Positions 671 to 58,703 of a DNA stretch of 64,000 nucleotides are shown here, piece after piece (the stretch's first letter is position 1; each line of letters starts with the position of its first letter). The DNA comes from Marsupella aquatica (lineage: Eukaryota > Plantae > Marchantiophyta): the NCBI GenBank assembly GCA_973895155.1, contig OZ316895.1, positions 15,506,816-15,570,815 on the forward strand, written 5' to 3'. The position numbers were made by a program, and so were the translations under genes. The notes under the pieces are model-generated. The model was not told where the DNA came from. It saw nothing but the letters and a program-made list of their open reading frames with translations, and made no database searches.

Positions 671-672
671 AA

Positions 673-6680: not shown

Positions 6681-6682
6681 CT

Positions 6683-13523: not shown

Positions 13524-14536
13524 GGTCAATTGCAAGCTTGAGGGGGGCAAAAGGACGCAAAAAGGATCACCAAAATGGAGAGGTAGTCCTTGTGGTGATA
13601 CGAAGATCAACGATCAAGATTGAAGGATAGTGGGGCCACCAAGGACTTCAACCCCGTGAAGGAATTAATGACGCAAAAGGATATTGCATCATTTCTAGCC
13701 ACTAAGGTCCTTCCACGGAGAAGAAGGAGGGGACCAGTTCCGTCATTCCCGCAGTTTGAAATCGCCGCCAAGTTTGAAATAGCCGCGCGGCTTCCGTGCC
13801 ATCCGCGGGTTTCCATCAATGGTGAGGAATTGGCCGCTGGGGCCTGCTGTGCCTTAGATTTCCAGATGTTTGAGAGGCTTCGGGGATACTCAACGACAGT
13901 GGCGGGGGGAGTGAACGCCGAGTAGTGTCGCAAAGTAGTTTGTTTGGGAGGCTTAGGGGATAATTGTCAATGACAGTGGTGGCGAGACTGAACGAGACTG
14001 AACGTCGCAAAGTAGTGGATGTCGGCAGTAAACGTCGACAATGAACGTTGAGGAGTTCCGCCAAATGTTTCAATTTTAGTGCTTGAAGAAAACATAGCAT
14101 TGCGGACTCTCTATTCTTTCAAATCTTTTCTAAGGTGGTGCGGTTTGGTGACATTGGTTTAGAGCTCGGGTAAGCAAATGTTGCTTTGTTGCAGTTTCAA
14201 CCAATTCTAGACAGACCTTCATATTCCTCACAGTCGCAATGCGTTCGGCGATAGGTGCTTGTAAACTCAAGAACTTTCAAATCAACGATGGTGCAAATGT
14301 TGCATACATGGTCTTTGACATGTTGTGGGCATGGAGAGTTTGCGTAGGTTTGGGTGGAAGTGCTACTTCATGAGCGTGACGTGCTCCGCAGGCCAGACTG
14401 AGGGTACGCTTGTAACTTTGATACCTAATGCACCACCTATTCTACTTCCTTTCATCGATATTTGACGTAACCTTCTCTACTTTAGATTTACCAGAACTCT
14501 CATCAGATTTAGTCAGGACTTTTCGTAGTTGTTTTG

Positions 14537-17134
14537 ATGGATACCCCACTTCCATTGCCCGTTGATGGAGGTGAGGGTGTAGGGTCATTAGAAAACTCTC
14601 CTCAAGAACGCTCAACCGGGTCTGTGTTAGTCAACAAACTCTCTAAAGGAAAACCCAGTTCAGACGATTGTGGTGCTTGAGCGGTAGCATCTATTGAGAA
14701 ATCTAAAGGTAGAGTCAAGCCAACTTCAGAGGCGACACACAACGAATGGGATCCAGCCGGGTCTGTGTTAGTCAAACTCTCTAAAGGAAAACCCAGTTTA
14801 GATGATTGTGTTGCTCGAGCGGTAGCATCTATTGAGAAATCTAAAGGTAGAGTGAAGCCAGCTTCAGAGGCGACAAACAACGAATGGGATCCAGCCGATT
14901 TTTACAAGGATGCTCACTTCTTTGCTACCCAGTTTGGCCTTCCGAATGAAGGCAAAAATCTCCATAGAATCATTGACATCAGTGAGGAAATGCTAGTCAC
15001 GTGCTTTGGAGATAAGGGACGGAGCGATTACAAACTAGGTAGTTGCACAGGCTTGCCACAAGAGGATGTCTTACATTTATCCCAAGTTGTCGATGGATAT
15101 GAGAAGCCGGTGAATGGAGTGTTGGCACATACATTTGTTAAGGGAGTGTATGCTAAGCGAGTGTTGGGGAGGACAGTTAATTGGGCCGCATACGCTGCAT
15201 CTAAGTTGAAAGGCCAGATTGTTCAGTGGCATAGAGAAGGCAAAGGTAAGCCTAATGGGCCCCCTTGTGTAAGGAAGACTGGTCGTGTCTATAAGCGCGC
15301 AGATACACAAGTTATTGAGGATGCAATTCATGAGGCAGTTCCTCCCCGAGTTCCTTCAGGCCTCTCTTTGAAAGAGCCAACGATGAAGTCTCCAATCCCC
15401 GAGAGCGGATGGGATGTTCTTTCCCTCGAAAAAGTTCCTGCTGAGCTACTTGGTACTGCATCTGCCTCCCCTATTCCGTGGGTGCGGCCAAGTCCTTCCA
15501 CTCTTGCGCAGTCGCCAAGTACCCCCCCCTCGTGCCTTGTTACTATCCATGCTTGAATCAGAAATGTCATGGAGTAAGAACCAAGTAAGAGAGGCCCGCG
15601 AAGATGTTCAGAAACTTCTTCGAAGCCTGGAAAATTTAAAATCTTCAGAGTGCGACCGGCGAAGTGCACTGCAGCGGATTCATCATCAAATTTGCAAACT
15701 AGAGGAGGAGCTGAAGCTTGTAAAGGATTCAATATCAAATGAAGAAGAGAAGCATGAAGAAACCACGAATGCCATTGAGTTGGAAGAAGGCAACCAATGT
15801 GAAGACGATGAGGTTTCACTTTGATCAATTTCCACATTAGTTTTTATCACACTTTCTATTTATTCTCTTCACTAACGTTGGAAATCTGAGATTAGTAGCT
15901 TGCAGCTAATATGATTTGTGAGTTGATGAATGACACTCTGTTTTTTATTCTTTGTGACAGACCCCCAACGATTACTTGACACACCTTCAGATTGATCTGA
16001 AGCAGCATGAGGCCACAATTGAGATGTTGAACTCCCGGTCAAGATCAATTTCAGATGAGTTGACTGTGTTGAGGATGCTCCACACCGACAAAGATCATAT
16101 GTTCAAAGACTTGCCAAGCAAGGTGGCAAGATTGACCAAAGTCGTGGAAGAAAGGGAGATTGTCGTTAAGGGGGTGGAGGAGCTTCTGGAAGCTCAATCT
16201 CAGGAACATTCCATTTTAAACAAAGTTTTGAAGCATCCTTGCCCTGTGTTAGCTCCTCGTTTTATTCCTACTTCTTGTCGATCTGTAGGAGTCCAAGCTT
16301 CACTTAATGTTTGTCCAGTGTGTTGCAATGGGTTTCATTGCTTCAACTGGATTCCAGCATCTTGTGGGCACACCTACCATCCGAGTTGTCTATTTCCAAT
16401 ACTCGGTTCATCAGAACAGAGTGCTAAGTGTTTGGCATGCTCCTATGCCTTCAGTGATGATTGGTTGCAAAGTTGGGGTTTGCCAAGTTCATATGCATCA
16501 CCAAGTCCGGTTGAATCACGGCATTCTTACATAACAGACTTAAAAGATATGTATGGGAAGAAGGGCAGATGTTTGGGAAGATGAAGAGAGGTTTCGCGGA
16601 TAGTTCAAACAGCTCAATCACAGGTTTGAATTTGTAAAGCAATCTTATGAATTATTTGTGCCTGCACATCTCTTTATAGTTTGTAGACACATTTTTGCCT
16701 GTTATGTTTGCACCCGTATGATTTTGTCAACTACTGTAATTATTCGGTGATTGTATTTTCAGGGGGATTCTCACGGCCAAGCTCTCATGTATTTGAGCAC
16801 CATATAGACCACTTCCATCATTGATATAGGCGATGATGAGCCTGAGGACGGATCCTCTAAGATACCTTTGGTGACACCAAAAGTAGAGGGTGGGGAGTCG
16901 GGAAAGAAACGAAAGGTTGAACAGGAATCAGCTAGGAAGGTGAACTGTAGCCAAACGTTGTCGAGTCCAGATACAATGCCTTTTTCCCCTGAGTGTGGCG
17001 TTCATGTCAACTATAAGCGTTTGGTGTTGGTGAAGACACCTCTTGGATTCTTGAGTCAAGCACTTGGCGGAAACTCACCTACTGTGACTATTCCCGCTCA
17101 TTCCTCCCAAAGGAAACTTCCTATGGATGATTGA
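14537..17134 (+). pseudogene. Multi-exon coiled-coil + RING-finger protein (Sola2 cargo); 3' end approximate
   Basis: ATG 14537; ~141-bp tandem duplication at 14617-14900; frameshift in a C-run near 15525; intron ~15813-15960; RING CPVC...CGHTYHPSC...CLAC in 15976-16584. Confidence 0.75.
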
Positions 17135-17436: not shown

Positions 17437-17840
17437 TCAGGACTCTTTGAGTTGGGGGTCACGGTCCTCATGTCAGGAATTGTGGTCCTTGTGTGAGGAC
17501 TCCGGGTCCTTGATTCAGGACTCGGGGTCCTTGAGTCAGGAATTGTGGTCCTTGTGTGAGGACTCCGGGTCCTTGATTCAGGACTCGGGGTCCTTGAGTC
17601 AGGAATTGTGGTCCTTGTGTGAGGCTCCGGGTCCTTGAGTCAGAACTCTGGGTCCTTGAGTCAGGACTCGGGGTCCTTGAGTCAAGACTCCGGTCCTCGC
17701 GGTTCTTTAGTCAGGACTCCGGTCCTGACTCAAGGACTCCGGTCCTTTAGTCAGGACTACGGGTAACTGATGATCAGTATTGTCTTCTAGTCAAGACTGG
17801 GGGTCCTTTAGTCAGGACTTGAGGTGCTTGAGTCAGGGTG
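17437..17840. repeat. Tandem array of ~21-bp GAGTCAGGACTCGGGGTCCTT units
   Basis: Directly visible; quasi-palindromic AGGAC...GTCCT core. Confidence 0.9.
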
Positions 17841-17931
17841 TTGGATTGAGATCCTCTTTAGTTTGCAAGAGAAACCATCCGGTGACCAATAGTTGATATG
17901 TAACCCTTCATATATTATCTTTGTGCAGATC

Positions 17932-18183
17932 ATGGACAATCTTGAGGACAAGTTCACCACCCTGGTGGATATCAAAATTGACCACATGTGGGGAGTTTGT
18001 GCTGGGTCATTTGTTTATGAAGGCTGCAATGTTTTGTTGAGTGATGGTAAGCCATGCACTTTGGGCAAGAATGCCCGCAGGCTGAGAAAATTGAACCCTC
18101 AGTCTCCCGTGGGTCCTCGTTCTCGAGGACGATCCGAACATGTCTGCTGCAGTGTTGGAACTGGCAGTTTTATGTACTGCTTT
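17932..18183 (+). pseudogene. RPA70 C-terminal OB-fold/Zn-ribbon-like gene, 5' part (split by CACTA-1)
   Basis: FVYEGC...C...CC...YCF| continues in frame after the TTT TSD at 28284. Confidence 0.65.
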
Positions 18184-19015
18184 CACTACTACACTATTGG
18201 CCCCTTTTGCGAACCCATACACATCGCAAGCAACAAAGGCCCGATAAATAGAATTCTGACACTTGCGAACTAACACGCATCGCTACACCATCCCAAATTG
18301 TGAAGTTAAAACCTTCGCACGCGGACCATCGCAACGCCATCGCAACACCATGACAATTTCCTAACCGAATTCCCTCGCAACTTGTCAAACACTTGCGAGT
18401 TCAAAATCGTTGCAGATGCTTCGCATTATGCCGCACGGTCCTTTGTTATTGACGTTGGTTTTTGTGAAGCTGGAAGGTTCGCTACGTGTTTGTGATGGGA
18501 ATGAGTTTGATATTTGCGATGTCGTGGGGTTGGCAACTAGCGAGCCTTATAAGATCACTCTTATGCGAAATGAATTTGGTGGGGACTTCCGATCTAAATT
18601 GGATCGGAACTTGTGAGTTGGTTTAGGCCAGAAGTTGTGAACCGTTTGACTTCGCAACTTGTGATGTTACTTGGTTCTATAATAGCGATCCGAGTCATTT
18701 CAGTATTTCCTAGTTATCCAAGTTTGCAATGGGTTCACACTTTCATGGGAACACGACTTTCAATCAATGTTTTGCGAGGGATTTCTCTTGGCAGTGGACC
18801 CAATGTGGAAGGCAAATGTTTTTTATAAGATCCATGCAAGTATATAGGTGGATATACCAAAATGTTAGGGCTTGTTAAGGAACCCAATACACAAGAGGGG
18901 TGGCATATCTGATGCCAAGTCACCCTACTCAACATATGCTATCCTAGCTAAGCTCCAACACGGCTAGTCAGTGACATGTATCTCATGAGCCCGGTCATGA
19001 GATTCTACAAGCTAA

Positions 19016-21062
19016 CTAAAATGGACTCTTCCGACCCCGCTTTGTCGACTTCTTTGCCGGCTTCTTGCCCTTATCCTTCTGTGGATGTACAGCCTGGTGC
19101 TGACGGGTGCGCGGTGCCTTTCGGCGCTGCTGCTCCTCCTGCTCCTCCTCCTCCTCCTCCTGCCCATCCTCCTCCTCGTCACCTCGCTCCTGCTCCCCCT
19201 CATCATCAACCTGTCTTGATGATGCACGACTACTACCACTACCGCGATGGGATGAACCTACCTCCCGGCTACTGCCCCTCTCCCTAGAACCACTGGTAAG
19301 AGGAGTACCCCCTCATCCTCATCATCACTACTACTTGCGTCAGCACCTGACCCCTCAGGCTCATCCGAATCCTGCATCCGTACACTTAATCAGTTTCTAC
19401 AAATTAAAAAGGGTCATCCACAATGTTGGCATCACAATTAATTAAACCTTGAACACCTAGATACTTACAGTAGCCAACTCGGCATCCACCATCTGAAAGA
19501 GGTACTTTCTCCCATGCTCCATCCCTATCTCAATATGTTTCTTGGATATCTTCCTCTTATATTTCCGGTACTGCCATGCACCATAAAACCAAAAAGTAAA
19601 CCCATAGGCTAAACCAAAATTCACAATGCGAGAGGCCTTAGGCCTAGAAAAGTTTTGAAAACAACTCAAATTCACATTTGCGAAGCTAATGCGGTCACAA
19701 AATGCGAAGCCCTAATGTTTGCGAAGGCATTGCGATGGCTTTTGCGATGCACATACCTTCGCAACAGCATCAGAAAGTCCAAAAAGAAAAAAGTGCATAA
19801 TAGAGTTTGCGAGGCTCTTGCGAACGGATACGCATCGCAATGGGATCGCAAACTGTGATCTCGAGAGGTTTTAAAAAATGCGCAAATTTCTAAGTGTCAG
19901 TCGTGACCTAAAACAATGCACAAGCAAGCACATGAGAGCATGGACATTCATGACATTCCATTCACTTGCATTACCTCAACTGAGAAAGTAAGGAGGAAAG
20001 AGCTTAGGGAGGAGAGGAGACACTCACAAAGTGGGCCTTGAGACCTAGGAGCCCGCCTTGACCTAGCTTGTGGACTGGATTGGGGGTGGCTTTCACTCGC
20101 TTGGCTGCATCCATGAAATGTTTGGGTGGTCTTCCTTCTTCGTCGACCACCTTTTGCACATCAGCTACCTTCTGCTCGAGTCCCTTCAGGTCATGGTCAA
20201 GGGGGAGCTTCCCGGTCTCCTTTGCTTTCAGGGATCGAGCTAGTGTATCCTTCCATTGTTCCAACTCGCGAGCTGCTTTGATTTGCACCTCAATCTTGTA
20301 AAATGCATTCCAGATGTCCTCAGTGAATTGGAGGGGCCTGCGCAAATTCCTGTACGATCTCAAGTCTCTCAGGTGGGCTCTAATCTTCATCCTATCATGG
20401 TATCTCATTTGAGACATGGAATTAGAAATCTTGTCTGCCAGCCATTGCTCATCTATGTCAGCTCCATTACGAAATGCATCCTTGATCTGATTCATCACTC
20501 TCTTTCGCTCTGCCTTCTCAACCTTTCCCCATTGCATGCCTCGTGAGAAATTGCTTGTGATGATCTGTTTGATGGTGCTCTTAGCCCCTACATAGGCTAG
20601 CTCAGTTGGAGTCCCAGTTGTCTCCAAGGCAATGAATGGAAGCTTTTTCCTTGCATCCTCTTTCTGACGTTGCTCATCTCGTTGTTTTCGAATTGCATCC
20701 CTCTCCTCTCTTCTCTTCTGTTTTTCTATGGCTTGAGGAGAGGCAACTCCCGACTTAGCCCTCTCCTCCCTCTTCCTTCTTTTCTCTCTAGCCTTCTCCT
20801 CAGCTGCGACCCTCTCTTCCTCGTCTCTAGTAGCTTGCCCTGCCACAATTCCTGTTTGCAAAACCTGGCCTAAAATGGCACTCAAGGAGGCAAGCCCTGC
20901 TGGAGTATTCAAATTTACTTCACCCAACTGTGCAGCACTGAGATGTTGGGCTACTAAGTCGCTCCATGCATTCTGTTGCTTCTCCTGATTTGCCCCATTG
21001 CCACTACCACCAGCACCATGTCCTCCACTCCCACCGTGCTCTCCACTCCCACCGGTAGCCAT
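19016..21062 (-). pseudogene. TnpA/ORF2-like accessory protein of CACTA-1
   Basis: Predicted exons 21062-20028, 19570-19469 and ~19372-19016 (acidic/basic tail, probable 1-nt deletion in a G-run). Coiled coil and VHKLGQGG motif reminiscent of the Ptta/En-Spm Transposase_24 domain. Confidence 0.6.
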
Positions 21063-21529
21063 AGCTCAATCCCTCTCAGGTCTCTCTCGATCTTCTCCCC
21101 GCGGCCCCTTCTCCTCTCGCTCTCCCGATCAAACAAGGAATGAGCTTGATGCAAGCTCCCGCCGACACTTATGCATTTCAAAAAAACCTCTTTGCGATCA
21201 CATTTGCATCACAAACTGCCACCCTATTACCTTCGCAAACGGTCTCGCAACTTGCGATACTTTTGTGAAGAAAATACCCTTGCTAATCCATCGCAACCCG
21301 CAGAAACGCCCAAAAATTGTTCTCGGCCTCTGTATTTGCGAAGATGTTGCGAACCCGGGAGATTCGCAAAATGCATCTCTAATTTGTGAAGCAATTTGCG
21401 AGGCAGGTGATCTCGGTTTAGGGTGGGAAACTATCCCAGGTGTTTAAACGGCTTTACAAGGGTATGGCCTATTTAAACCCTTTTAACTCAACATGGATTT
21501 GTGAATGGCCAATTAGTTTGAAGAAGAGG

Positions 21530-22450
21530 ATTTTAGGTTGTAGTTGGGCTTTGTGTTTTTGTTTTTGAATCTTAATTGGGTTCTAATTTAACAAAGGGTT
21601 TGAGTTTTAATTTGGGGTTTGGATTTAGAAAGGGTTTAGTTTAGGGAGGGTTGTGTTTCAATTGAAGGGGTTAATTTGGGTTTAGGTTTTAATGTAAGGG
21701 TTGGGTTTGACTTTTCACTGATTTCATATTTTTTGCTCTATACATATTTCAGTTTAGGGACATGGTTTTAATAGAGGGCTTTAAGTTAGGGTCTAAGGTA
21801 GGGGTTTGGGTAAGGTTGTAATTGAGAAGTTTGGGTTAGGGTTTAGGGTAGGGGCTTGATTTTGGTTTAAGTTTAGGGGTTTGGGTTAGGGTTTAGGGTA
21901 GGGGCTTGATTTTGGTTTAAGTTTAGGGGTTTGGGTTAGGTTTAGGGTAGGGGCTTGATTTTGGTTTAAGTTTAGGGGTTTGGGTTAGGTTTTAAGTATA
22001 AAGGTTGGGTTCCATTTTAATTATAAGTTGTGTTTCATTTTTAATTGAGGGGTTTGGTTTAGGATTTTTGGGTAAGGGTTTGATACGTAATGAGGGAATA
22101 TGGATAGGTAACTTAGGATGGAGTTTGAGTTAGGGTTTAAGGTAGGGGTTTGAGTAAGGTTTTAGCTGAGGGGTTTGGGTTAGGTATTGAATATAGGGGA
22201 TCGATGGGTTCAATTATAATTCAAGCTTGTGTTTAATTTTTAATTTAGGGATTTGGGTTAGGGTTTAGGGTAAAGGCTTCATAGGTAATGAGGGAGTTTG
22301 GGTTATGGTTTCAGATGGGGTTTGAGTTAGGTTTTAGCTGAGGGATTTGGGTTAGGGTTTGAATGTAGCAGTTGGGTTTTTAGCGGAGGGGTTTTGGTTA
22401 GCTAGGGCTTTGGGTAAGGGTTTTATATGTTCATGTTTAGGGTAGGTTTT
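21530..22450 (+). repeat. Degenerate plant telomere-like (TTTAGGG) tract inside CACTA-1
   Basis: Many TTAGGG/TTTAGGG/TTTGGG units, including a ~50-bp unit repeated three times at ~21829-21990. Confidence 0.85.
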
Positions 22451-22886
22451 TTTTCTAATTGAGGGTATGCTTTCTTTATTTCATTAACATGAAGGGGTGG
22501 AACACTCTAGGAGTTACAGGGCACTTCCCCATCATTTTGAGAGTTTTGGCTAATGCATATGCATTGCGAGAGCTCAGGCATCTGAAAGGTAAAGCTTGTT
22601 TTCCTGGCATTTTTTATTTTTACTGTAACTTGAGGGTCTATCATCCCTTTCTATAGTTTACCATAAGTCATTGCTTAATTCATTGTATATTTGCAGATTT
22701 CTCCCTCCTACTTCCAGATTGGGTTCATCAAGTTTGGACCAAAAGACCTATAGGCATTGCTGAGCCCGGGTCTCATAAAGGTATTTTTTCCTTTCATTTC
22801 AGTTTAATATGTCTACTTAGGGATTACAAATGATCGTTTTAGCTATTTGTTTACTAACTCGCTATTCCAAATCTTCCACTTGCCAG

Positions 22887-24036
22887 ATGTCTTCATCCTC
22901 TACAACTTCCACCACATCAGACTCCTCTGATGAGGACATAGATCCTCCTCCTCAGCCTGAAACAGTCGCTCGTCGACCTAGTGGTCCACCACGCCAACTT
23001 TGCAGTTGTAAAAAATGTGTGGGGATGGTTGTCCAGAAGTCATATGTATGTGCAGACCATATTTCTCGATATGGACAACATCGAGGTCTTACACCCGGAG
23101 CCTCTTCATCCCATACGGTGAGTTGTAAACTTACTATGGTTTATTTTTTATTCAATAAATATTGCTAGCATGATAAGTTGGGGAAGTTTACAATCACTTT
23201 GTTGGATTTGTTCCCTATAGGTATCTAATAGGCCTACACCCACGGCACCAGCACCCTATATTCCCTCACAAGGAGTTCTAGATGCTATAGGCTCGGCCCT
23301 TTCACAAGCTTTCCGTTTAGTTGCAGCAGAGCGAAGTGGTGTTGGGACAGTTCAGGGTGATGGTATTGTTACACGAGGGAAAAAACGGTCTAAAAGGCAA
23401 CCTAGAGGGGAAGTTGATCAGTACACCTGTAGGGTTGATGGTAGGTGGGGACCTTGTACATTCACAGGGAAATGTGTTCCTATCATAAAGGATTGGAATC
23501 CTGATTGCCTTGGTTTGCCATGTGATATAACCTATGGTGAGGAATTAGAGGTTTGGGGAAGACATTGGATTGTCAAAAGTTCTACACTAGGGGAGAGACA
23601 TGGGTATGGAATTTTTTCTTGCCAGGACATCATTGTGGATGATATGGGTGGAAAAGGGCGCTCTCAAGATGGACCAACGTTGTTCCCATATGGTGGACCC
23701 ATTTACAAGCGAAGACATTGGAACATGCTCCTTGTACAACACCCTGAGTGGAAGACTTATGCATTGGACATGGATACTTTTGATGGTTGCACTAGGAAGT
23801 ATAGTGAACAACATATAATTGATGGTGATCCCATCCGTAGTGGAAATATAGCCGGTTTCATTAACAGTACTGTGGGGACCCGGCCTAAGCGTAGGAAAAA
23901 CTGTGAATGGGTTTTTGTTGATGGTCCCCCTCCAGCACCATATGGGCAGAGATATCATCATGACCATTGTCTAGTTGTAGCTACTAGGACCATCAAGGCC
24001 GGAGAGGAGTTGTTTACACATTATGAGTGGGATTAG
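22887..24036 (+). CDS. Zn-domain-SET (lysine methyltransferase fold) protein, exons 22887-23117 + 23221-24036, ~348 aa
   Basis: Phase-0 donor ACG|GTGAGT; acceptor CCCTATAG|GTA; open frame. SET motifs VKSS..HGYGIFS, IIDGD..GNIAGFINS, NC, LVVATRTIKAGEELFTHY. Confidence 0.8.
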
Positions 24037-27000: not shown

Positions 27001-27526
27001 GACCAGAACAACATTGTGGACACAAGGGAGACATTTCAGGATTTCTGACCTTGATGAGAAGAGGGGTAGAACTTTTGACTGTGAAGTTCAAGGGCAGTTC
27101 ATGCAGGATTCACAAAGTAGCCGCCATGACACCAATGTCATCCGAGATGTGGTGCCTCACTATGGGAAGATAGAGGAGATCTTGATTGTATCCTATGACG
27201 CGGATACAAAATTTGAAGAGTATGTCTTCAAGTGTAAGTGGTTCAAAATTCACTTGGCTGGTGAGAATCGCACAGTACTTCTTGATGATTGTGGGTTTAC
27301 TCGACTGAAGACATCAGCAACTAGCTTTCAACCATCTCATTGGCAAACATCTGAACCGTTTACATTCCCAAGTCACCTTGAGCAGTGTTTCTATATTCCA
27401 TACCCACCAGACCCAGAGGAGTGGTCAGTTGTTATACCGTATGTGCCATGATCTCGTTCCATTATCTCAAAAAAACCTGAAGTTATTATTGTGTCAAACG
27501 GAGGAGAGGATGAGGACCAAGTTTGA
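22887..27526 (+). pseudogene. TnpD (Tnp2/Transposase_21) transposase of CACTA-1
   Basis: Exon 1 has CSCKKC..H (transposase-associated domain); exons from 24233 and 25574. Motifs IHACVNDC, RLGLASDG, YNLPPW, HDYP, LDPMHIEGN, MYWLERYM. Frameshifts near 25350 and 26461; stop at 27449. Confidence 0.93.
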
Positions 27527-47600: not shown

Positions 47601-49206
47601 CACAAGAGTGTAGGACCTCCGCCAAGCCCAGGGCAGCAGCTCAATGAAACTCAATTTGCAACTCGTCTCACTCTCGCTCTTGCTGCAAAGAAAAAAAGTG
47701 CAGGTCAAACTCCTTTGTGGCCTCAGTCCCCACCGCTTTCCCCAAGCTATGGACAACTACTAGCAACTTGCGCTCACAACATGACATCCAGGTCTTTAGC
47801 CAACTGCACACTGGAAACCGAGAGAAGTGAGCGCAGTCACGCAAGGCCAAAAAAGACCAAAGTTGAGCCAAAGCAAAACTTTACTAATGTATTTACAGTC
47901 AAGCATGAGGGCAATCAGGTAAGCAGAAGACCACGCATTCCCGCAAAGAGTTGTAGGTTCTCGTCACTTCCTCGCCTCTGTATAGAAGGTCGATCGTTGT
48001 ATCTCGGGTACCCAATGATAGTGGAGATGAATGCAAATAGGCCTCACCAATCGCCAGTCATCCGCGATAAACCTCCCGACAACCTTTGTAAACTCTGGAC
48101 CCAGCCTCAACCTCACTCAGCACAGTAGCAAAACCTAGCAATGTCACCGCTGCAATGTTTTGTGCTTGCAATAAGCAGCCTCCTAAACCCACAGCTCCTT
48201 CCACTGCCAACAAAATGCCAATGACTCAACCCTCATTCCAACCCCGAGCTCCCAATAGTAGTGAGAATCCAAGCCTTTGACTGCAAGCGCACAGCGGAGA
48301 CAAGACACTCAAAGAAGCTCGATAGGATTCACTCAGGAAACCTAGGGCCCAAGCCTGACGATGTTCGGCTCTTCCTTCTCGCTCGCCAAATGCCGACACT
48401 CTGTGCTCGCGAAGGCACTCGTCGTTTCTCCCAAGGGTTTTGGCACAAGGGGTTTGGGAAAAACAGTCAATGGGCAAAGGCATTACCATGTAACACGTGG
48501 AAACTTGTGGCATGGTCCATTAGGTGAAGGGGTTCATGAAGCCAATTGAGGGCAACACGCATTACAAGGAAGAGTAGGTAGAAGTGGTCTTGCGGCAAAG
48601 GCATTGCATTGTACCCTTAACAAAAAGAGTCCCTAATATTGGGCTGTTCAATATTCCTAGATGAAGGGAGTTGCAACCATTTGAAATTGGCCAAGGGGTA
48701 TATTTGGAGACAGAATGCTGCCAAATGATGTTAGTGGGTTCAGTGTGTGTCTTTCTCTTTGTATGATGGAGTAACCAGTGGCCTGCATCATGGCGCGCGA
48801 CTTGCAATTGCACCGACCTCCGGTACATATACCTATAATCATTTTGTCAATCATACATATAAAGTATATATGTATGGGTTGGATTTGGGATGTGGGTCGG
48901 CATTATTATTTAATAAGAGCCAAAGTTATATTGTTCTTATATATGTGCAACCATGGTGATAAATATGGCAGAAAGCGCTATTATAATTGTGCTGAGTCAC
49001 TTATAAAACTTCAAAATAATTGCCTACACTAAGTTACAATTGCAACACTCCAAATAGTTATAGATATGCCTCTCCAAAAATTCACCAAAACTTAGTTGAG
49101 AAGGTGTAACAAAGATGACACCAATAACCTTGGAGTCACTAATTTCCAAAGGTCTCAAGTAAGTCATGTAAGGGAGGGTCTCAGATAGGGCCGGTTTCTT
49201 CTAGTG

Positions 49207-52033
49207 CATCCTGGGATTGCATCACAGTCCCATTTCTTGTGCCGATTCACAGCTGTAGCACCTATTTCCCAAAACAATCGCCTCACAAGCAAAACATCAC
49301 CATACTCTCTCTCAATACCAATGGCAAACTTCTCCTTGCAAAATGCAACTACATCATGAGCATTTTCCAAGCGAAAGCCATGTGTCCCCTTCAATTGCTC
49401 TCTCTGTATCCCGCTCTTGATGTGGCCTCCAAGGGCATCCTATCCATGCAGAAAAAGTCCATTCAATGTCACACAAGCATACAACTAGACTCCAAAGAAT
49501 AATGTTCTTGTATAACAGTAAAGAAGCTCATATGAAACTAAATAATGAGAACAACACAGTGAATTCAAATATTGGAGGTAGAGTTCCACACTTACAGCTA
49601 CACCCTTTCCATGTCCTGAAGCATGGAAAAACCATTTCATCCGTGCACCAAATCTCTTGTAATACCTTGAGACGTAGTAGAAAGGTCAACAAGCCTTAAA
49701 TTGTGAGGCAGCTCCATCGGACCAAACCCAATGCTGAGTGAATTCAATTCCCTCTTGCTTCATCCAATGATAATGAGCATCCATGCAATGCTGCACAAAC
49801 AAGGTGTTGTGAGTATTATCATCACTGATATAGAAATGATAGTCGGCGATGATATCTCTGTCACCAGCTTCACTCTGTGCCATACTCACTGTCCATCCCA
49901 TTGCAGCCTCCATAGATTGGTGCACATCTTCTCGATGTCTATAGGTCACATGGATCAACAAAGTAATCTGTTTGTTGTCCCAATGTTGCGATTGAATCTC
50001 ATTTTGCGTCTTGAAAGTGTAATTTTCAGAGAAGTCAATTGAAGACACTATGGTTCCTCTTGGGAACGTCTTCAAAAACAATCTAAACTGGTCACTTTGC
50101 CAGCGAGCTCTAAAATCATGAACAACACATGACTTCATTCTAGCTTCGACCACGTTCCTGAAATCACTTACAGACGTAGTCTTATACACCATCCTCAAGC
50201 GTTTAGACTTTTTTTGTGAACTCTCATCACTTCCCTGCTTCTTTGCTTTCTTCATTTTGTAAGTTGTCATCTAACTCCTGATATTCAAAACTCTGCCAAC
50301 TAATAGTTAGTTGTTGTGTGGAATCCAACTCCCATGGACACCAGTCCAGATTCAGCATTCCACAATCTACACAAACTCCCATAATACAGTCCTTCTTGTG
50401 CCATACCTGCCCCTCGGTTTTCTTACACAGGGCACCTTCCATCCAACCTCGAACAGAGGTAATGTGTGTCCTTGAAGCTACACAAGAAACACCTAATGGA
50501 ATGGCCACTGATTTACAAGTACAACACTGACAACTACACTCAAAGGGGTGATAAAACTTCCTGAATTTGTTTAGTGCGTCTTTCAGGAGGTCCATTTCAA
50601 CGTGCTGCTTGCAGCAGCATACATTTCGATCCTTCATGGTTCGAATGTAAAACGGTTTCAGATAACTGAAGGACCGCAGGCCTATAGAAACATCATTGTT
50701 CTCAGCCTTGCACCAATCTTGGAACTTGAAGAAAAATTCAACCTGTAAATAGACATCAACAGGGTGTTAATAGATTACCCAAATTCAGGCTCTCAAATTT
50801 GTATCGTTGGCTACAACTGAAGACGGGACTAAAGAATGCAGAAAATTTTAAGAACTCTCAAAGAAATTGAAGTAGCCAATGTGAGGATATCCTACCTCTG
50901 TATCCTCGAGCCAATGTACTTTATGTTCCTCATGTTGATTTGGTCCAAGTCGCTTTCTAGCTATCTCTTTCTTGCCTGGTGAGATTCTAGTGTATGTGCT
51001 CCAAAATAGTTCAACAATCTTGCGCACCTCTGCACTAATCTTGTCACTCCTGGTTTTCCTTTCCCCCATTGGGTATTTTATACATTGGTTCTCATCTATC
51101 TGCTTCCGCATGTTTGATGCTTTTTGAATGTTGTGTCTCTTGATACCAAAAGCCTTAGCTAAAGAGGACTGATATCGCTTGCCAACCGTGGACTGTCCGA
51201 CCATAGCTACCAACACTGAATGCTTTACAGCCAAGTGATCTTTCTTTTTACCCCACTTCACAATTTGCAAGGTCTGCCTAAGGTCAGTTATAGCAGCTCC
51301 TACAGATGCATCTAACTTAGGGGTCCCAAGAGCTGCAGGATGATATTCTCTCAATGAAGAATGCAACCAAAATCGCTCTAGGACTACCTTCCTTGCGGAT
51401 AAGTTGAAATCTCTCATTTTTTTGAATAAGACTGAAGTTACCTCGGAGACCACTGAATCAACCGCTCGTCTCGTTCTATTGGGCGTTTCCTCAGCAAGAT
51501 GACTAGACAATGAAACTTAAACTTCTCATCCTCCGAAGTCTCCAATATGCAGCTCATTTTCTAGCAGCATCTTTCTCCCTGAATTCTCTGGCCAAATGAG
51601 GGTCCTCTTGCATGCTTTGTGGACAGTGAGCTCCTTCACCTAATCGCACACGCAGTACTTCGAGGGCGGCTTGCTTTTGCCCTATCCTAGAGCGCAAACA
51701 TGACAATGTTTCTTTGCCTTCAGCACAGTCATTCTTGATGTTGTGCAGCTTCAACGCAGCTTGAGCGGTTGCCTCTCCATGTAAGCGCAGCGCCTCATTC
51801 CTAGCAGCAGTTAATAATACCTCACTTTGCTGCTGAGCATGAAAAATCAGGCCCGTACTATTGCCGTCTTCCGGTTGAATGCCTCTATTCAATTGCTCAG
51901 TGTTGACCTCTTGGCATTGCACGATAGGCTTGTCATACCATGACTTTTGCCTTCAAAAATTGCGCCATTCTCTTTTGTCTTTCTCTTCTTGGGATTCATC
52001 TTGGCGCCCCGCTTGGCGTCGCACTGGTGGCAT
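49207..52033 (-). pseudogene. Sola2-like transposase, N-terminal and catalytic part
   Basis: RKTRSDKI, Cys-rich CCCKQH...CIMGVCVDCG, SIDFSENY.FKTQNEIQSQHW, YISDD, WSDGAASQFK, ASGHGKG/DALGGHIK; several stops, frameshifts and introns. Confidence 0.88.
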
Positions 52034-52784
52034 CTCGCTAAAATTGATGGCAGCTCCTACAACACGTTGAGCCTTTGAACGTAAGTTCAAAACAATATTT
52101 CATAAGTTAAAGAGGCCATGGTCCAAGTTAAATGAGGCTCTAGATGGCAAAAATTCATGTGGGAACACCCGCACTCAAGCAAACAAAAAATGGAGTCTAA
52201 CAACATTGAGATGTCGCGCGGCTTACCCTTTACCAACGAGGTGAACACCCTACATTGCACAAGACGGTCGCCAAGCTTTTTGCTAGTTCTATGGATGATC
52301 TTTAGAATTTATCGAATCCGCTTGAGGCCAGAAGCTCTCTGGTAAAACTCCTGAAGAAAACCCGCAAAACATTACCGCAGATAGTCGACAGCCCTTCAAT
52401 TCCCATGGCTCCCTGCCTCTTCCGTAGAGTCCTAGCTGAGCCTAGCTAGGACTCCTTAGTCTACGCGTAATTAAGTATTTTGAAATTCAAATCGCTACTT
52501 AAGTCCTGTTTCATTGGTATTCATTACCACTTGGACTTCCTTTTAAGTCCTTTTGTCCTTAACCATTGAATCATTAATGGACGCTACTCCTAATCAAACC
52601 TCCTAGGACGCTTCCAAATGGACTGCTGGAGGTGAGGGGAAGATCCCACCTTCCATTCTCAATAAAGCAATCCAGGCCATTAGGTGTAACACCTTGTCCA
52701 TCTCTTGAACAAAGGGAAGGACTGGAATCCTTTTGGTGGAGATTTTGAATATCCTTTTTGCCCCCCTCAAGCTTGCATTTGACC

Positions 52785-53729
52785 AGGAGTATTCATTTCT
52801 TGAGGAGGGAGCAAGTACATAATTTGCATCGCATTGGAAGCGACATCCAAGGACATGTGTTCATATGTCATATCTTGGATTGCCCATTGATTCCTCGAAA
52901 TGCAACACTAGTTGCAAAACGATTCAAGGATGGAGACCGGCACAAGAGACAAACAAATGCCTTACAAGAAGTGCTAATGGGAGGCTTGAATCACAAAGGA
53001 ATCATTGGGACCCTGGCAATGACTATCGAAGATCCACCAAAACTTATCTATGATCATTACAATGGAGGTGACTTGGGAAGCTTCATAGATAAGTGTGGGA
53101 AATGGAGTAAGAGCAAGGGGAAGACACAATCCACTTTGGAAGTTGATGTGACATTGATATCCGAAAAAAAACTCTTTTTGAAATATCGTTTGGGGATTGC
53201 TATGGCTTTATTGCAGACATTGCAGTATTTGCATGCACACGACCGTTTCCATTGTAATCTTTGTTTTTGGAACATCCTTCTTCACTTTGATCACGAGGAT
53301 GATTTGGCAATCAGAGTTTATGTAGGAATATGTGATTTTGGGTTGTCTAAACACAAGTTACAATGCATATTACCACAAAATCTAATGTGGCCCACTCCTG
53401 CAGAGAAAGCTGTTGCGTATCAAAAACAATATCCACAATTGGCGCCTAAGCTAGTTCGTTCCGATCCAACAGAGTACAGTCAAGCAACTGACATATATGC
53501 TTTGGGCAATGTCTTTGAGACATTACTTACAAAAAATTGGGATGGAATGACCCTAATGACACGTTATGGAGAGCATGCCCCTAAATTGGAGATTATGATA
53601 CGTGACATGATGGCCACTGATGTCACCAAAAGAATGTATTGTGTTCATTGGAGTTTGAGAATGATGAGGACATTCCAGGATTGTAGATTAGTTCAACACA
53701 ATAGTCATTATCTAAGAGATTATGGATGA
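52785..53729 (+). pseudogene. Protein kinase domain (3' half of the split gene)
   Basis: VAKRF, E of helix C, GGDL, YLHAHDRFHCNL..NILL, CDFGLSK, APK, DIYALG; catalytic D appears as N and APE as APK. Confidence 0.88.
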
Positions 53730-53909
53730 TATAGTTTCATCATGAATGACAATGAAATATGACATGAACAATCATCTATTTAATTATGTCATATGAATTT
53801 AAATGTATTTCTCAATTTGCTTCATTGTGTTTTGTTATTATTTTTATATTGAAGAGTGTATGGTGAATGAATGCTAAATATGTTTTTGTTATTGTAGAAT
53901 TTGCAAGGA

Positions 53910-55830
53910 TGGGAAAATGGGATTTGGAATCCGACGAGGAGGAAAAACCTAGAAAGATTCCATATTTATATTTGCAACTTGCCCAGGATTTACAACTTTG
54001 GTCTCAGGATCAATACGTTGAAGAAGATTTTCAACCCATAGACGAGGACATTGGAATGAGTAGCAATCATGCAGGGCAAAGCATAACCAAAATGGATGAG
54101 GATACCAAGCATGTTGAATGAAATATCACAATGCCAAATGTGAAACCTCCTCACAATGAATGGCCTATCAACGCCAAAGAATTGGAGATATTGATGTCAC
54201 GTGTGGAGTTCCAAAACTGGATGAAAATTATTTTTGATGATGAAAATTTATGGGCCACAAGGTCTTGGATGCAAGATAAGTACACAATGTCCAAGGTAAC
54301 ACATGTGGAAATTGGCAAGCATTGGCGCAACAAGCTCGGTTTATCCTCCTTTTCTCCGACTCCTAATAGCTGAATTCATTCTGAAGTGGAAGGTGGATTA
54401 CCGTTGGGAAACAGAAGAGGGCAAGATGACTCACTCTGTGCATCAGTCTATTCTAGACATTGCAGGTTTGAAGAGCAACAAAAATACTACAAAAGATTTG
54501 TCGAGTCAAGCAACCAACAAAGGGTCAAAAAGAAATATACATGATACGCAAGACATTCATGCACATCAGAAAGATAAGTCGATTGCACTGAGACGACTCT
54601 TCACTAAATCCGAAAGTTTCAGCGCACCAAAACAGGTGGACAAAACATCAAACATTACAACATCTACAAGTAACAATTTACCAGGAAAGTTCACTGGTGT
54701 TTTGGATCCAAAGAAAGAATCATTGAGCATGGAGATTGTGTGCAAGAGTTTGGGCACAAAGATTGGTCATTTGATCAAGAACAATCTCCGCACAAAGTTT
54801 TGTCTTGACCTTTGTGAAGCTAGCAGCATTGACTACTACAAGTCAAAGTTGCAAAATAATCTTTTGAAGATGAAAGCAATGGAAAAAATGCCCATTCAAA
54901 GTGCGACTACTTAAGGGGTGAAGGAATATAAGGTGCAACTGTACGACAAGATGGAGGAGATTGCAAAGCTCAACAAACAACTTGCCCAAAAGGATGGTCA
55001 AGGTAGTCAAATGAAACAAGTTCAAGAGGTAGATAGAGTCATTCAGGATTTGAAGAATCAAGTTGCATCACAAGAGGTGATCATAAGAAATCTGCAAGAG
55101 GAGATTGAGCAAATGAACACTACTGAGGTGGATGGTCAATTAGAGAAGAAAAAATCAAGATGCATGAACTACAATTATATGAACTTGCAAATGATTGATC
55201 CTATGGGAGAATCTCATCTTTTTCCGGATGTGGAGAAGGATCCAAAAGACGTTGAGAAATTTTTTGACAAGTGGAAGAGCAACGAAAATATGGCCCAATT
55301 TGTTCGAGAAAAGGATGGAAGATGTACTTGGTGCTTGTATCCATGGGGTCCCAAATCTGTTTCCATTTTGGGAACATGCGGTCACTTATGGCATCATGCT
55401 TGCTTGTTTCGGTGGATGAAGAAGAACCAAAAATATTGGTGTCCGAAACCATTCATCAACGAGAGTATGAGCAACGAGGTTTGTTGAAACAAATGCCACC
55501 AATGGAGACACAGCAAGACACTGAAAAAATGACTCAAGAGAGTATTGCAATGACACAAATCGATTCAAGGCCCATTGACAACTTCACAGTCAATGATTAC
55601 AACTTGTCAGGAGGTGAATTTCAAGAGTGGAAGGAATATGCAATGGCCAATCGACCAACAACAGATGAGCAAAACATGCAGTGATCTATTCGTCGCCATC
55701 ATCATCGTCAGCAACTGGCAGAGGTGAAAGCAAAAGCGCAAGACAATGAGAACCAAAATTACTAGATTGCAAACACAATGTTTAGTATAGCATATTTTAT
55801 TGCATAGGACATGCACAATCCGGCGTAGTA
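53910..55830 (+). pseudogene. Coiled-coil + RING-H2-like protein, degraded
   Basis: Consecutive ORFs broken by stops and frameshifts; coiled coil followed by CTWC...CGHLWHHACL..W...C. Confidence 0.7.
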
Positions 55831-55852
55831 TATCATAGTTTGTCGTATAGTA

Positions 55853-58703
55853 CTAGCATGTAATACCTAAACAAATATCAAGGTTGTGACGAAAAGTGTC
55901 TTGTGTTATTTTTTTTTTTTTTTGCAACTGTCGATCAAATTGAAATTGTCTGGTCATCCATTGGACCGGATCTGCGCTATGATATTCTTGAAATGCGCCA
56001 ACACGGGCATGTATGCTTGATGTGTATGGATTTGTCATGTTGTGCCTTTCATACATATTGAGTGTTGGAGAAGCATGTTGTCCCCACTGTGCATCATCAG
56101 GTTGTGCAAACAAAGTTGGTGTTGTTCTCTCCGGACAGAGCTCCGATGCAGCACCTCGTCATTCAAATAAGTAGGAAGTATTTGCTTGGACATCATTTTG
56201 TAGATTCAATGTTGGGTAGGTGAAGGATGGGTTTGGTTGGGAAGGCACTACAAAGTTTGCATCGAATGAGTAGTCCTCGTCATCCTGAATTTGAGACTCA
56301 TCGATTGTAGGGAACATCATTAAATCCATTTCATCTTCCCATTCTCCGGCATCACTTATTTCAGTATCTGGTGGAATACGAGTCAACATGTCATTATCAT
56401 TGTGTAATGATAATCCTTGCAAAGCCTCATCTGCGTCATCAATTTATCAAAATTCTCCACGTCATCTTTTCCAAAAGCCGCACATGTAACACATGTTGTT
56501 CAGTGTGACATCCTTCTATGGAAGTAGGTCTCGGCCCATCATTTGTTGCTGTTCTTTCATCATATCGTCTGTACATAGAAGTATGAGGGTTTCTCACCTT
56601 TATGAACCCTTTTTGCACCCTCGAATTTGTGAATACAAAAACAAAATCCTTTGCTCGATCATTGGTCAACCTGTTACAGCTTTTTGAATGGATAAAGCCG
56701 TACGAACTCCAATTTCGTTCGCATGAAGATTCACACATTTGTTGATGCGTGATTCTTTTGGCCATCAATCTTAGCTCCGCGTAATCAGCTCCATACAAAT
56801 GCCACCACTCTCCAGGACTTAATTTCCCAATATTGGATTGTGCTCCTCTTATTGCAACCGATGAATTTGGCAATTTTTTTTGAGCCTCAAATGCCTGCAT
56901 TTGGATGTCAGAAATAAGTGTCGTCACATCTCAATCATGGTTGATTCCTGCCTTCACCTTGTGTTCTGCATATATCTATGAACGTATTCATTGAAGCCTC
57001 TATACAGTTCTGCATCTCTTGCCACATCTTCATCTTCATCTTCATCGAAGAAAAATTGAGGATTCAGATATGCTGCTGCTAACATGAAATCAGTAGTGAG
57101 TGATTTTCGTCGATCCATATACACTTTCATTATCTTTGGTTTTAAGTAGTTCGTTACTAATGTACACCCCTCCATGCTCGCCTCCAGTTTAGCTATTCTT
57201 TTTTTCAAGCTCCAATATAGTCAAGGAGACTGTGGTGAAACTCCATCGAATTCTTGCAACATCTTCACCAACGGCAGGAAAAAAGCGACTGTAGATTTTA
57301 CTTGAGCCCAAAATGTATCTTGCTGTATCCACGATTTAAGTTCGTCTGCCTTTGCCCTCGTCATATGCCCTTGTGACTTTGGTCGAACTGGCAGCCGATC
57401 ACGATAGGATTGCCACTTATCGTCAATGACCATTTGTTGTAAAGCTCCTCTTAGCTCCAATGCTCTCTACGCCATTAAAAAATTTGTTGCAAATCTCGTT
57501 GCATTTGGATTTAACAACTTCCTGTAACCGGATTTCCTCACAAATATTGCAGACAACTTTTATGATGATGTAACTGCTTTAACTATCCATCTCAAGTGCT
57601 TAAAAACAATTTGAATGGATTTTTTTCCGCTCATCTAGCACTACATTCTTGTGGCCACACATGTCTTCTAGTAACATATTAAACACGTGGGCAGCACACT
57701 AACTCCACGTCACATGTGGATATTTTTTCATGACTATCTCTTCGATAACAATTTGTATGATGTGATCAGCGCCAATGTCATCTATGTATTTTAACCACAT
57801 GTCACCAAGATACTTCCCATCTTTCAGCTTGTGCAGCGTTCCAACTATCCAAAAAAAAGTCTCCTTTTGAACTCAACAACATGACATTCATCAAAGATTC
57901 CCTTTGGATATTTTCCCATCCATCGGATGAAAGGGAATATCCAAAGGGTTTTGCCTCCTTCATTGGTTTTGTCATGTCCTTTGTAAGATCAACTCTAGCC
58001 TCCTCCAATAATTTCATTCGCAAATTTTGCATACCCGGAAGAGAATATCCATTTACAATCCCTTTTGAGGTTTCTGTGACTGCTTCACGGAAGAAAGAAT
58101 TCTCCGACACATTGAACGGAATACCACTTGAATAAAAAGCTTTAGCCCACAGCTTATCCAAAAGAGCTCTATTTGGAATTTGATAAGCATCCATGATTGG
58201 GTTTGCAAAATTTGATGCTCTACTTCGATGACTCATATTTCCATCCTCATCAAGGTCAACAAAATTTGAGTCTCGAGTTGATGCTTGCAAATTGGAAGAT
58301 GGGTTATATGACCTACGACCTCTCATGGATAACAAAATATGACTTCCATCACTTCGTTTGTACTTTATGGATGGGTCAACCTTTATGACATTGTACATTC
58401 TATTGATGTCATCTAAGTCAACAACTTCATACAAGCCTATGCAAGGTGGCCATCTCCTTTGAGTATGTTTCCCGTTAAATGTGCTTTTGCTCGTGTTGCA
58501 TGATGCGTTGTATATTTCTTGCAAAATTTGCATCTTCGATATATACGATTAATATCATTACACGCTGATGGCGTATCACATCGTTCAAAATATTTCCACA
58601 CTGGGGAGAATTTTGCACTACGATCTCGATTGTGATTTCCACCGTGCCTAACAGGAGTAGAATGAGCTGATGAGTTGCCCGACTCATCTTCTTCGGAAGA
58701 CAT
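55853..58703 (-). pseudogene. hAT (Ac/Tag1-like) transposase
   Basis: BED finger (VWKYF...CKFC...H), DUF659-like GIPFN...SSDGW, AAAYLNP, dimerisation domain WW..YG...LAKR...SSCERNWS..IHSK..NRL; multiple lesions; 3' end approximate. Confidence 0.93.

Follow-up and report, generated by a model that had tools for sequence, protein, structure and literature searches.

Two nested CACTA transposons of the liverwort Marsupella aquatica carry SET, PHD and tandem-BRCT genes

Do the DNA transposons of a liverwort carry regulatory genes of their own, or are the regulatory-looking open reading frames (ORFs) between their ends scraps of host genes? The question is raised by a stretch of 64,000 nucleotides of Marsupella aquatica (Marchantiophyta; assembly GCA_973895155.1, contig OZ316895.1, positions 15,506,816 to 15,570,815 of the forward strand), hereafter the window, whose positions are counted from its first letter. 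A sequence-only reading of this DNA had noticed SET, PHD, BRCT, RING, RPA-like and kinase genes in or near several unrelated transposons and had proposed a lineage-wide strategy of cargo-bearing elements. We compared the ORFs of the window with Pfam, scanning 124 of the 128 stop-to-stop ORFs of at least 90 amino acids (aa) and setting the scores against the Pfam gathering cut-offs. The window is transposon-rich eukaryotic DNA, and it contains three bounded, mutually nested DNA transposons: an outer element and two CACTA elements, CACTA-1 and CACTA-2. We consider it likely that CACTA-1, with a SET gene, and CACTA-2, with a PHD gene and a tandem-BRCT gene, carry intact accessory genes which have been conserved along with the elements and which probably act on host chromatin or DNA-damage signalling. 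The earlier observation is partly confirmed, and its interpretation partly supported.

CACTA-1 (18184-28280, plus strand, 10.1 kb) was delimited by a scan for terminal inverted repeats (TIRs) and target-site duplications (TSDs). Both of its termini carry CACTACTACA, and the TSD is TTT. Inverted CACTA...TAGTG ends, a 3-bp TSD and a Tnp2/TnpD-type transposase place the element in EnSpm/CACTA. The transposase exons (24233-27448, plus strand) encode Transposase_21 (E = 1.6e-32), DUF4218 and DUF4216. Upstream of them lies the SET gene, with exon 1 at 22887-23117 and exon 2 at 23221-24036, both on the plus strand. Exon 1 begins with an ATG at 22887 and encodes an N-terminal Cys motif of the CACTA-transposase type, whereas exon 2 encodes the SET domain and ends in the stop TAG (24034-24036); the predicted protein has 348 aa. 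The SET ORF (23221-24033) scored above the Pfam cut-off for SET (E = 2.4e-7, 31.6 bits against 22.4) and lies inside the ends of CACTA-1, in agreement with the sequence-only reading that this element carries a SET gene. A third conserved gene, a 353-aa, Lys/Glu-rich ORF without a family, occupies 20007-21065 on the minus strand.

The exon boundaries point to a link between the SET gene and the transposase. Exon 1 ends in a G at 23117 that is followed by the donor GTGAGT, and exon 2 is preceded by an AG acceptor at 23219-23220. The transposase ORF starts at 24233, right behind a second AG acceptor; by manual count, all three splice sites are in phase 0. Exon 1 (upstream ORF 22821-23165) showed a weak match to Transpos_assoc (E = 0.021). 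The CACTA-2 transposase ORF includes Transpos_assoc itself (residues 51-91), whereas the Pfam scan gave no Transpos_assoc match in the first CACTA-1 transposase ORF (24233-25393).

The SET gene has a family of relatives. Forty homologues were found at E ≤0.001 with 47-78% identity, many of them from metagenomes; among them are sequences of Calypogeia fissa (67%) and of five Sphagnum species. Many of these matches carry a precomputed PF00856 annotation, and the scores of homologues are borderline with respect to the Pfam cut-off (22.9 bits for P0004 and 21.7 for P0001). In an alignment of 13 relatives with the window ORF (A1, 14 rows), the longer relatives carry an extra N-terminal piece that matches exon 1 and has the CACTA Cys motif, the N-termini of proteins of Sphagnum and Calypogeia being homologous to exon 1. 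One Sphagnum gene model, P0028, labelled "Transposase", joins the exon 1 piece, part of SET and the N-terminus of the transposase.

Scanning metagenome contigs with the A1 profile yielded 35 SET loci, on which the window ORFs were then placed by tblastn. Ten of the 35 end less than 250 nt past the SET match and are hence uninformative; in 22 of the 25 informative loci (at least 250 nt downstream), a CACTA-1-type transposase follows SET at a distance of about 150 nt. The loci L029, L032 and L033 have a truncated SET and then unrelated sequence. Exon 1 is present in 15 of the 35 loci, and the 353-aa gene lies upstream and antisense in seven (51-62% identity). Three loci have a CACTACAACAACAGGGGGCTATTTTGC terminus 3.5-3.75 kb upstream of SET, and since the bases flanking it differ each time, these are separate insertions. 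The signals at the exon boundaries are also kept: 14 of 14 loci have GT at the donor of exon 1, the first transposase codon is immediately preceded by an AG acceptor in 20 of 22, and SET ends in a stop after residue 271 in 24 of 25. These diverged metagenome copies show a conserved layout of the CACTA-1 family, in which the antisense 353-aa gene, exon 1, the SET exon with its stop and the transposase exons follow one another.

We calculated the ratio of nonsynonymous to synonymous divergence (dN/dS) between the window and metagenome loci by the Nei-Gojobori method (NG86). The ratio was 0.21-0.26 for SET, at dS 1.0-1.2 (up to ~1.4), and 0.15-0.19 for the N-terminal part of the transposase, at dS 1.3-1.45; it was ~0.10 for the C-terminal part (dS 1.7-2.0) and ~0.15 for the antisense 353-aa gene (dS 1.9-2.1). 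These ratios are rough, dS being near saturation for SET and the N-terminal part of the transposase and past it for the other two. Judged from such comparisons, SET is under purifying selection between lineages while single copies decay. The sequence-only reading had asked for a test of purifying selection and had named random, neutrally evolving cargo as the outcome that would speak against it. The SET cargo is neither random nor neutral, because its position, splice sites, stop and dN/dS are conserved. On this comparative evidence, SET is a long-standing accessory gene of CACTA-1 and not a Pack-type capture. The proposed lineage-wide strategy is shown for the SET-CACTA only, whose SET gene has relatives in mosses and a liverwort.

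How would the SET gene be expressed? Exon 1 would splice either to the SET exon or past it to the transposase exons, giving one transcription unit with two products. A shared transcription unit is predicted because exon 1 encodes a transposase-type module, the transposase ORF starts at an acceptor, all the sites are in phase 0 and they are conserved at dS >1. The SET protein would thus have the transposase's N-terminal module and be brought to the element, where it would methylate a histone or another protein. This arrangement has a precedent in En/Spm of maize, in which TnpA and TnpD arise from one transcript by alternative splicing and the accessory protein probably acts on the chromatin or methylation of the element that encodes it. 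En/Spm is of the same superfamily, and there, as predicted here, the accessory protein and the transposase share a 5' exon. Unlike in En/Spm, however, the accessory product of CACTA-1 has a SET domain and is not a DNA-binding protein of the TnpA type, and the splicing is a prediction.

Several points weigh against the view that the SET gene is conserved and active. Alternative splicing from a shared exon 1 is inferred from the sequence together with one gene model. No SET-containing protein longer than 475 aa was present among 3268 candidates, which agrees with SET as a terminal exon but is weak evidence. When all pairs with dS 0.05-1.5 were considered, SET had a median dN/dS of 0.74 (84 of 105 pairs) and the transposase one of 0.50 (36 of 36 pairs); these sets include 14 and 8 window-locus pairs, respectively, and are not purely comparisons among loci. 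Moreover, nine of 14 full-length metagenome SET copies have in-frame stops, most copies being dead, and the ORF lists of loci L026, L032 and L034 hold decayed copies only. High dN/dS among copies would nevertheless be expected of decaying insertions, the usual picture being that selection acts on the active lineage. Catalysis is a further concern. Canonical SET domains have an NHS(C)-type motif and an ELxF/Y..Y motif with the catalytic Tyr. In A1, the 12 rows (of 14) that cover the NHS-type motif retain its Asn, which is followed by Ser or Asn and never by His; the GxG-like and (E/D)ELF(T/S)(H/Y)Y motifs are kept. Catalysis by the SET protein is uncertain because the His is replaced. AlphaFold gave unusable models, with a predicted local distance difference test (pLDDT) of 40.8 from the 14 rows and 41.8 for the SET core from 39 rows, and no PDB chain was matched by the SET sequence or by the profile, the latter searched at E up to 1.

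Two further observations concern CACTA-1. Nineteen of the 32 TTAGGG hexamers of the window fall in 21066-22886 as ~25-bp tandem repeats. This cluster forms the spacer between the antisense 353-aa gene and SET exon 1, and the same spacer holds 0-2 hexamers in seven metagenome loci; the segment is a telomere-repeat-like array within what is likely a bidirectional promoter. In addition, contigs of the sequencing runs that we matched to the window (X1, X2, X5 and X6) include deletion derivatives of CACTA-1. One joint leads from 19580 to 27723 with 32 filler letters (X1, X2 and X5), and another from 22783 to 25551 with 20 filler letters (X1 and X5). These copies have lost SET plus the whole or part of the transposase.

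CACTA-2 (31131-49206, minus strand, 18.1 kb) has CACTAGAAGAA perfect (11/11) at both ends and the TSD CAT. It likewise shows the inverted CACTA...TAGTG termini, 3-bp TSD and Tnp2/TnpD-type transposase of EnSpm/CACTA. Its transposase ORFs (35851-39603, minus strand) contain Transpos_assoc, Transposase_21 (E = 1.2e-69), DUF4218 and DUF4216, and a TnpA-like ORF (33494-34144, minus strand) matched Transposase_24 below threshold (E = 1.5e-4, 22.4 bits against 28.7). The interior further holds a PHD gene, a tandem-BRCT gene, two overlapping putative Cys-rich ORFs (42817-43336, minus strand) and, on the plus strand, a fragment of ribosomal protein L18a (44289-44654; Ribosomal_L18A E = 1.6e-17, 64 bits, residues 22-71 only). 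The sequence-only reading had assigned PHD, BRCT and a Cys-rich ORF to this element; all of these lie inside its ends, BRCT being identified by Pfam and PHD by a profile, but the Cys-rich ORFs match no Pfam family.

CACTA-2 has moved recently. A 4497-letter contig of run X1 (depth 100.5) matches 30065-31131 with its letters 1-1067 and 49207-51843 with its letters 1064-3695; the two matches were taken as one contig, as length and depth agree. It differs from the window flanks at 10 of 1067 and 20 of 2637 letters (~99% identity), and it represents the empty site of CACTA-2 with a single CAT. Because of this empty site, the element, cargo included, must have moved recently. A 2334-letter contig of run X2 starts at 49207, which is compatible with an empty site, although its first 119 letters were not seen. 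Near-identical X1 contigs inside CACTA-2 have depths of 1554-1782, compared with 100.5 for the flanking contig, and one of them (depth 1641, two other letters) covers the spacer between the BRCT and PHD genes at 40876-41424. These values hint at about 15-18 near-identical CACTA-2 copies with cargo in X1, depth not being the same as copy number. A point on the other side is that the summed depth over 45.1-49.2 kb is far below that of the rest; the right-hand ~4 kb of the element probably varies between copies.

Both the PHD gene and the BRCT gene lie upstream of the CACTA-2 transposase on the same strand. The tandem-BRCT gene (40013-40885, minus strand) is a single exon of 290 aa from a Met at 40885 within ORF 40016-40930, and Pfam detected BRCT in two stretches (E = 2.2e-12, 47.5 bits against 21.3). 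A search of 1.84 billion representatives returned 24 relatives, all of 111-326 aa and nine of them at E ≤1e-10; the best has 60% identity across residues 16-300. In an alignment of these nine with the window ORF (A3), the arrangement of two BRCTs persists in relatives as remote as 24-33% identity, and the relatives begin at the Met that lies inside the window ORF (40885). Where their C-terminus is complete, they end at about the same place, with homologue lengths of 264-313 aa. The A3 profile matched the BRCTs of Rtt107 (1.1e-8), Rad4/TopBP1 (2.2e-8) and BRCA1 (4e-7).

The PHD gene (41478-42158, minus strand) is an NSD-like multi-PHD gene, also with a single exon, which encodes 226 aa from a Met at 42158 within ORF 41481-42185. 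The ORF stays below the Pfam cut-off (23.9 against 27); the profile of its alignment with relatives (A2) matched the PHD1-3 region of NSD2 (residues 645-794, E = 5.4e-6) and PHD1 of AIRE (1.5e-5). Three relatives were found, with 81, 74 and 50% identity. In A2, 100 columns are invariant, among them those of the Cys/His pattern, and the C-terminal part is common to all; the start Met is shared with relative P0070. The PHD relative with 50% identity (P0072) and a BRCT fragment with 48% identity (P0042) are each on a 2638-base Logan contig, which suggests that the PHD-BRCT pair is linked in one diverged copy. When the PHD alignment was used for a pattern search, none of the 179 pattern matches in genome_contigs and none of the 43 in viral_contigs proved to be a relative.

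We also considered the Cys-rich ORF, PHD and BRCT as exons of one BRCA1/BARD1-like gene, and rejected this gene model on the short length of the relatives and their own start Met. None of the 24 BRCT relatives is a long protein of the BRCA1/BARD1 type, with RING, a PHD-like part and a BRCT pair.

The PHD protein would read histone tails, and its BRCT neighbour would take part in phospho-dependent DNA-damage signalling at the breaks made by excision or insertion. Their case as accessory genes is good but thinner than that of SET: the apparent conservation of PHD and BRCT rests on protein-level comparison, their linkage to a transposase is seen within this family only, and relatives of either were found in no named genome.

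These weaknesses leave room for a mixed case, in which SET alone is long-standing whereas PHD, BRCT and the RING and RPA-like ORFs described below are recent, useless passengers that are intact because the copies are young. PHD and BRCT do have few relatives (three and 24), none in named genomes; the X1 empty site, with flanks ~99% identical, makes CACTA-2 young at this locus; and a captured piece of RPL18a lies in the same element. However, BRCT relatives at 24-33% identity still have the same length and two-BRCT layout, and the PHD relative at 50% keeps all Cys/His columns and appears beside a BRCT relative. Such divergence with intact frames is unexpected for a neutral passenger, and we regard the mixed case as unlikely.

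A more radical alternative is that all these ORFs are random, neutral fragments of host genes, in the manner of Pack-MULE and Pack-CACTA elements, which capture gene fragments. The RPL18a piece is indeed a captured host-gene scrap within CACTA-2, and it is the likeness to Pack-type elements at this locus; the seemingly variable right-hand 4 kb of CACTA-2 and the deletion derivatives of CACTA-1 (19580>27723 and 22783>25551) would also fit. For SET, capture is contradicted by the fixed position in 22 of 25 loci, the kept splice sites and stop, and dN/dS of 0.21-0.26. PHD and BRCT, in turn, are complete single-exon genes with diverged, intact relatives. No cargo gene is close to a canonical host protein, and no protein of BRCA1/BARD1 length is among the 24 BRCT matches. 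In contrast to what Pack-type elements carry, the SET, PHD and BRCT genes are whole, have been conserved and are remote from host paralogues; the sequence-only reading had already set them apart from the RPL18a scrap (64 bits to Ribosomal_L18A), which it took to be near its host gene. We therefore judge general Pack-type capture to be very improbable, and retain the reading of SET, PHD and BRCT as accessory genes.

Both CACTAs sit in an outer composite DNA transposon (13524-52784, 39.3 kb, or ~11.1 kb without the two nested elements). Its TIRs (13524-13552 and 52756-52784, 29 nt) are complementary at 28 of 29 positions (97%), and it is flanked by the 4-bp TSD AGGA (13520-13523 and 52785-52788, read directly from the flanks). 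In the available excerpt of PMC3627910, the TSD of Sola2 is 4 bp. TIRs with a 4-bp TSD, the Sola2 trait, are present in the outer element, and the earlier label "Sola2-like" fits because of the 4-bp TSD; it is by TSD length only that the element counts as Sola-like. Four ORFs of 132, 222, 179 and 194 aa (49689-51952, minus strand) are its putative transposase ORFs. They matched zero Pfam families. Their look-alikes in the Atlas are animal hypothetical-protein clusters, in one of which DUF7869 is annotated on 13% (rank 19); these are leads only, and a BLASTP comparison of an outer-element ORF with the DUF7869 ORF of the window was not significant.

The outer element is older than its two passengers, CACTA-1 and CACTA-2 having been inserted later. 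When CACTA-1 and one TTT are removed, 97 codons up to the insertion point (17893-18183, plus strand) and the stretch at 28284-28574 (plus strand) join as one 194-codon open frame. The nesting is confirmed by this restored ORF and by the empty site of CACTA-2.

The earlier reading had attributed a RING and an RPA-C-like gene to this element. Both ORFs do lie inside the outer element, but the domain calls are below the Pfam thresholds, and this counts against them as cargo. A coiled-coil ORF with a C-terminal RING-H2-like part (15958-16581, plus strand) matched zf-RING_UBOX with E = 0.0077 and 16.7 bits against a cut-off of 25.2; its Cys/His spacing, C-x2-C...C-x-H-x2-H-x2-C...C-x2-C, fits RING-H2. 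The second half of the split ORF weakly resembles the RPA C-terminal domain (Rep_fac-A_C, E = 0.029 and 0.059, 13.6-14.6 bits against 28.5). The two ORFs may be cargo of the same kind as SET, PHD and BRCT, a weak suggestion from their sequence. On a wider version of the cargo reading, separate bryophyte transposon families would each have built a chromatin and repair toolkit: a SET methyltransferase, alternatively spliced from the first transposase exon, that is delivered to the element and rewrites its chromatin; a histone-reading PHD protein and a BRCT protein in a currently mobile CACTA, steering break signalling where it is excised and inserted; and a RING E3 ligase with an RPA-like single-stranded DNA binder in a Sola-like element. 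We hold this version to be possible but doubtful. That the cargo manipulates chromatin, ubiquitination and repair is what we infer from the sequences, as the sequence-only reading did.

The outer element also has internal tandem repeats at 17437-17844, 29534-29671 and 29993-30147, with units of 21, 28 and 31 bp, which may be transposase-binding arrays. Runs X5 and X6 leave some stretches of the element uncovered, an observation on which no conclusion here rests.

A last alternative is that the regulatory ORFs are host genes lying between transposon fragments whose boundaries have been misdrawn. It does hold for the kinase-like ORF at 52789-53726 (plus strand; open frame 52749-53726). After removal of one AGGA, the ATG at 13514, its predicted start codon, is in frame with this ORF (ATG GTC AGG AGT...); the outer element was inserted in its fourth codon, and the ORF is the target of the insertion and not cargo. 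It may also hold for a second RING gene (54300-55484, plus strand), with a coiled coil and RING-H2, around which no enclosing hAT ends were found. The X1 contig, however, joins 31130 to 49207 with a single CAT, and the interior of CACTA-2 has hence moved as a unit. CACTA-1 has matching termini and a TSD, and its removal restores an ORF, while SET adjoins the transposase in 22 independent loci. For SET, PHD and BRCT, the host-gene explanation is contradicted, and as a general account of the locus it is scarcely credible.

The kinase and the second RING gene had been listed as cargo of a hAT neighbourhood. Both domains score above the Pfam cut-offs, with 48.6 bits against 23.1 for kinase families and, for ORF 54915-55484, 29 bits against 27.3 for zf-RING_2 (E = 1.3e-6), but neither gene is shown to be cargo, the kinase being an insertion target and enclosing hAT ends being absent from our scans. 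The kinase-like ORF has HCN in place of HRD, and the second RING gene has one in-frame TAA (54912-54914); both features count against functional cargo as well. The kinase-like ORF had no PDB match at E 0.001, and its look-alikes in the Atlas are generic kinase clusters. In X1 and X2, each site of the second RING stretch is matched by several diverged contigs (11 at 54759, for instance), and the stretch belongs to a low-copy repeat. Next to it is a hAT transposase remnant (56442-58548, minus strand) with DUF659 and the hAT dimerisation domain. Scans for a hAT TIR and 8-bp TSD pair enclosing the kinase-like or the second RING gene found none; the sole candidate, 55901-58728, is no better than expected by chance and contains neither gene. 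A comparison of 6982-13523 with 52785-64000 for inverted repeats gave nothing useful. Taken over the whole locus, support for transposon cargo is good for SET and reasonable for PHD and BRCT. The RING and RPA-like ORFs in the outer element have weak backing as cargo, and for the kinase and the second RING gene the idea is wrong or lacks support.

The RING ORFs at 15958-16581 and 54915-55484 are alike in build, each with a coiled coil at the N-terminus and, at the C-terminus, a RING-H2 with CGHxxHxxCLF. Their sequence similarity is weak (BLASTP E = 2e-4 across 23 residues), and they may represent one diverged family.

The rest of the window adds to its transposon content. At the left, a Copia element (326-6981, with Pfam domains on the minus strand at 1229-5137) has 300-nt direct repeats (326-625 and 6682-6981, 98% identity) around ORFs for gag, integrase and RT that are intact and lie on the minus strand, and is young. 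A GC-rich tandem array at 11433-11909 consists of ~23-bp units resembling CCCGGACCCTAAA, with ORFs open on both strands. At the right, a DUF7869 ORF (62812-63999, plus strand, E = 1.8e-46) with the motifs DNxxxNKN and GHTH..D continues past the window end and is probably the transposase of one more DNA transposon; tandem repeats at 59451-59738 and 62423-62596 (71-bp and 58-bp) precede it. A tblastn search within the window for paralogous cargo gave self-matches only.

Is such cargo known from other elements? Accessory genes are rare in eukaryotic DNA transposons, according to the available part of a bioRxiv preprint on Bostrychia (10.1101/2025.02.11.637652). The same part describes Helitrons and HarbingerS with SET genes, and red-algal Plavaka elements of the EnSpm/CACTA superfamily with the accessory genes PAG1-3, PAG2 combining a DNA methylase with SET; SET genes of HarbingerS and MuDR of Phytophthora are cited in the part of PMC12730594 that was available. 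As far as these excerpts describe them, the Plavaka elements resemble those studied here in being large members of the CACTA superfamily with a SET accessory gene beside the transposase, and in combining several genes in 17-19 kb, like CACTA-2. The elements here are, however, of the land-plant CACTA type, with Transposase_21, DUF4218, DUF4216 and Transposase_24. By its description, PAG2 is also set apart from the SET gene of the window, which has no DNA methylase but a transposase-type N-terminal exon. The HarbingerS, MuDR and Helitron cases, compared by their descriptions in the same excerpts, have in common with CACTA-1 that DNA transposons of several superfamilies have taken in a SET lysine-methyltransferase gene, but they concern other superfamilies and other hosts (oomycetes).

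Other transposons encode proteins that work against the epigenetic marks placed on them or rewrite these marks. The excerpt of PMC12730594 names the VANC anti-silencing proteins of VANDAL (MuDR) elements in Arabidopsis and fungal transposons with TET/JBP dioxygenases; on that description, they are alike in kind, but their protein families are unrelated to SET, PHD and BRCT, whose role here is predicted from sequence. For the outer element, the available parts of PMC3627910 and PMC4455052 make known chimeric Sola2 elements with unrelated passenger genes (Fanzor). The likeness to Sola2, as far as described there, lies in the TIRs and 4-bp TSD, and the TSD of the outer element, AGGA, is not AT-rich. 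In the open-access and bioRxiv literature, we found no report of SET in bryophyte CACTAs or of PHD or BRCT accessory genes in CACTAs. Transposon-borne SET genes are already known, whereas PHD and BRCT cargo is apparently unreported within the open-access literature.

Few known cases link accessory genes of transposons to chromatin. The locus described here offers a CACTA family of land plants with an old SET gene that is under selection and, by prediction, part of the transposase transcription unit, together with a second, recently mobile CACTA with PHD and BRCT cargo. In bryophytes, H3K27me3 and H3K9 methylation both mark transposons. As the SET-CACTA family is abundant in Sphagnum-type data, it can be tested in a culturable moss. 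If the encoded proteins act on the elements' own chromatin or on the repair of breaks, they would lend themselves to the study of how bryophyte transposons escape silencing.

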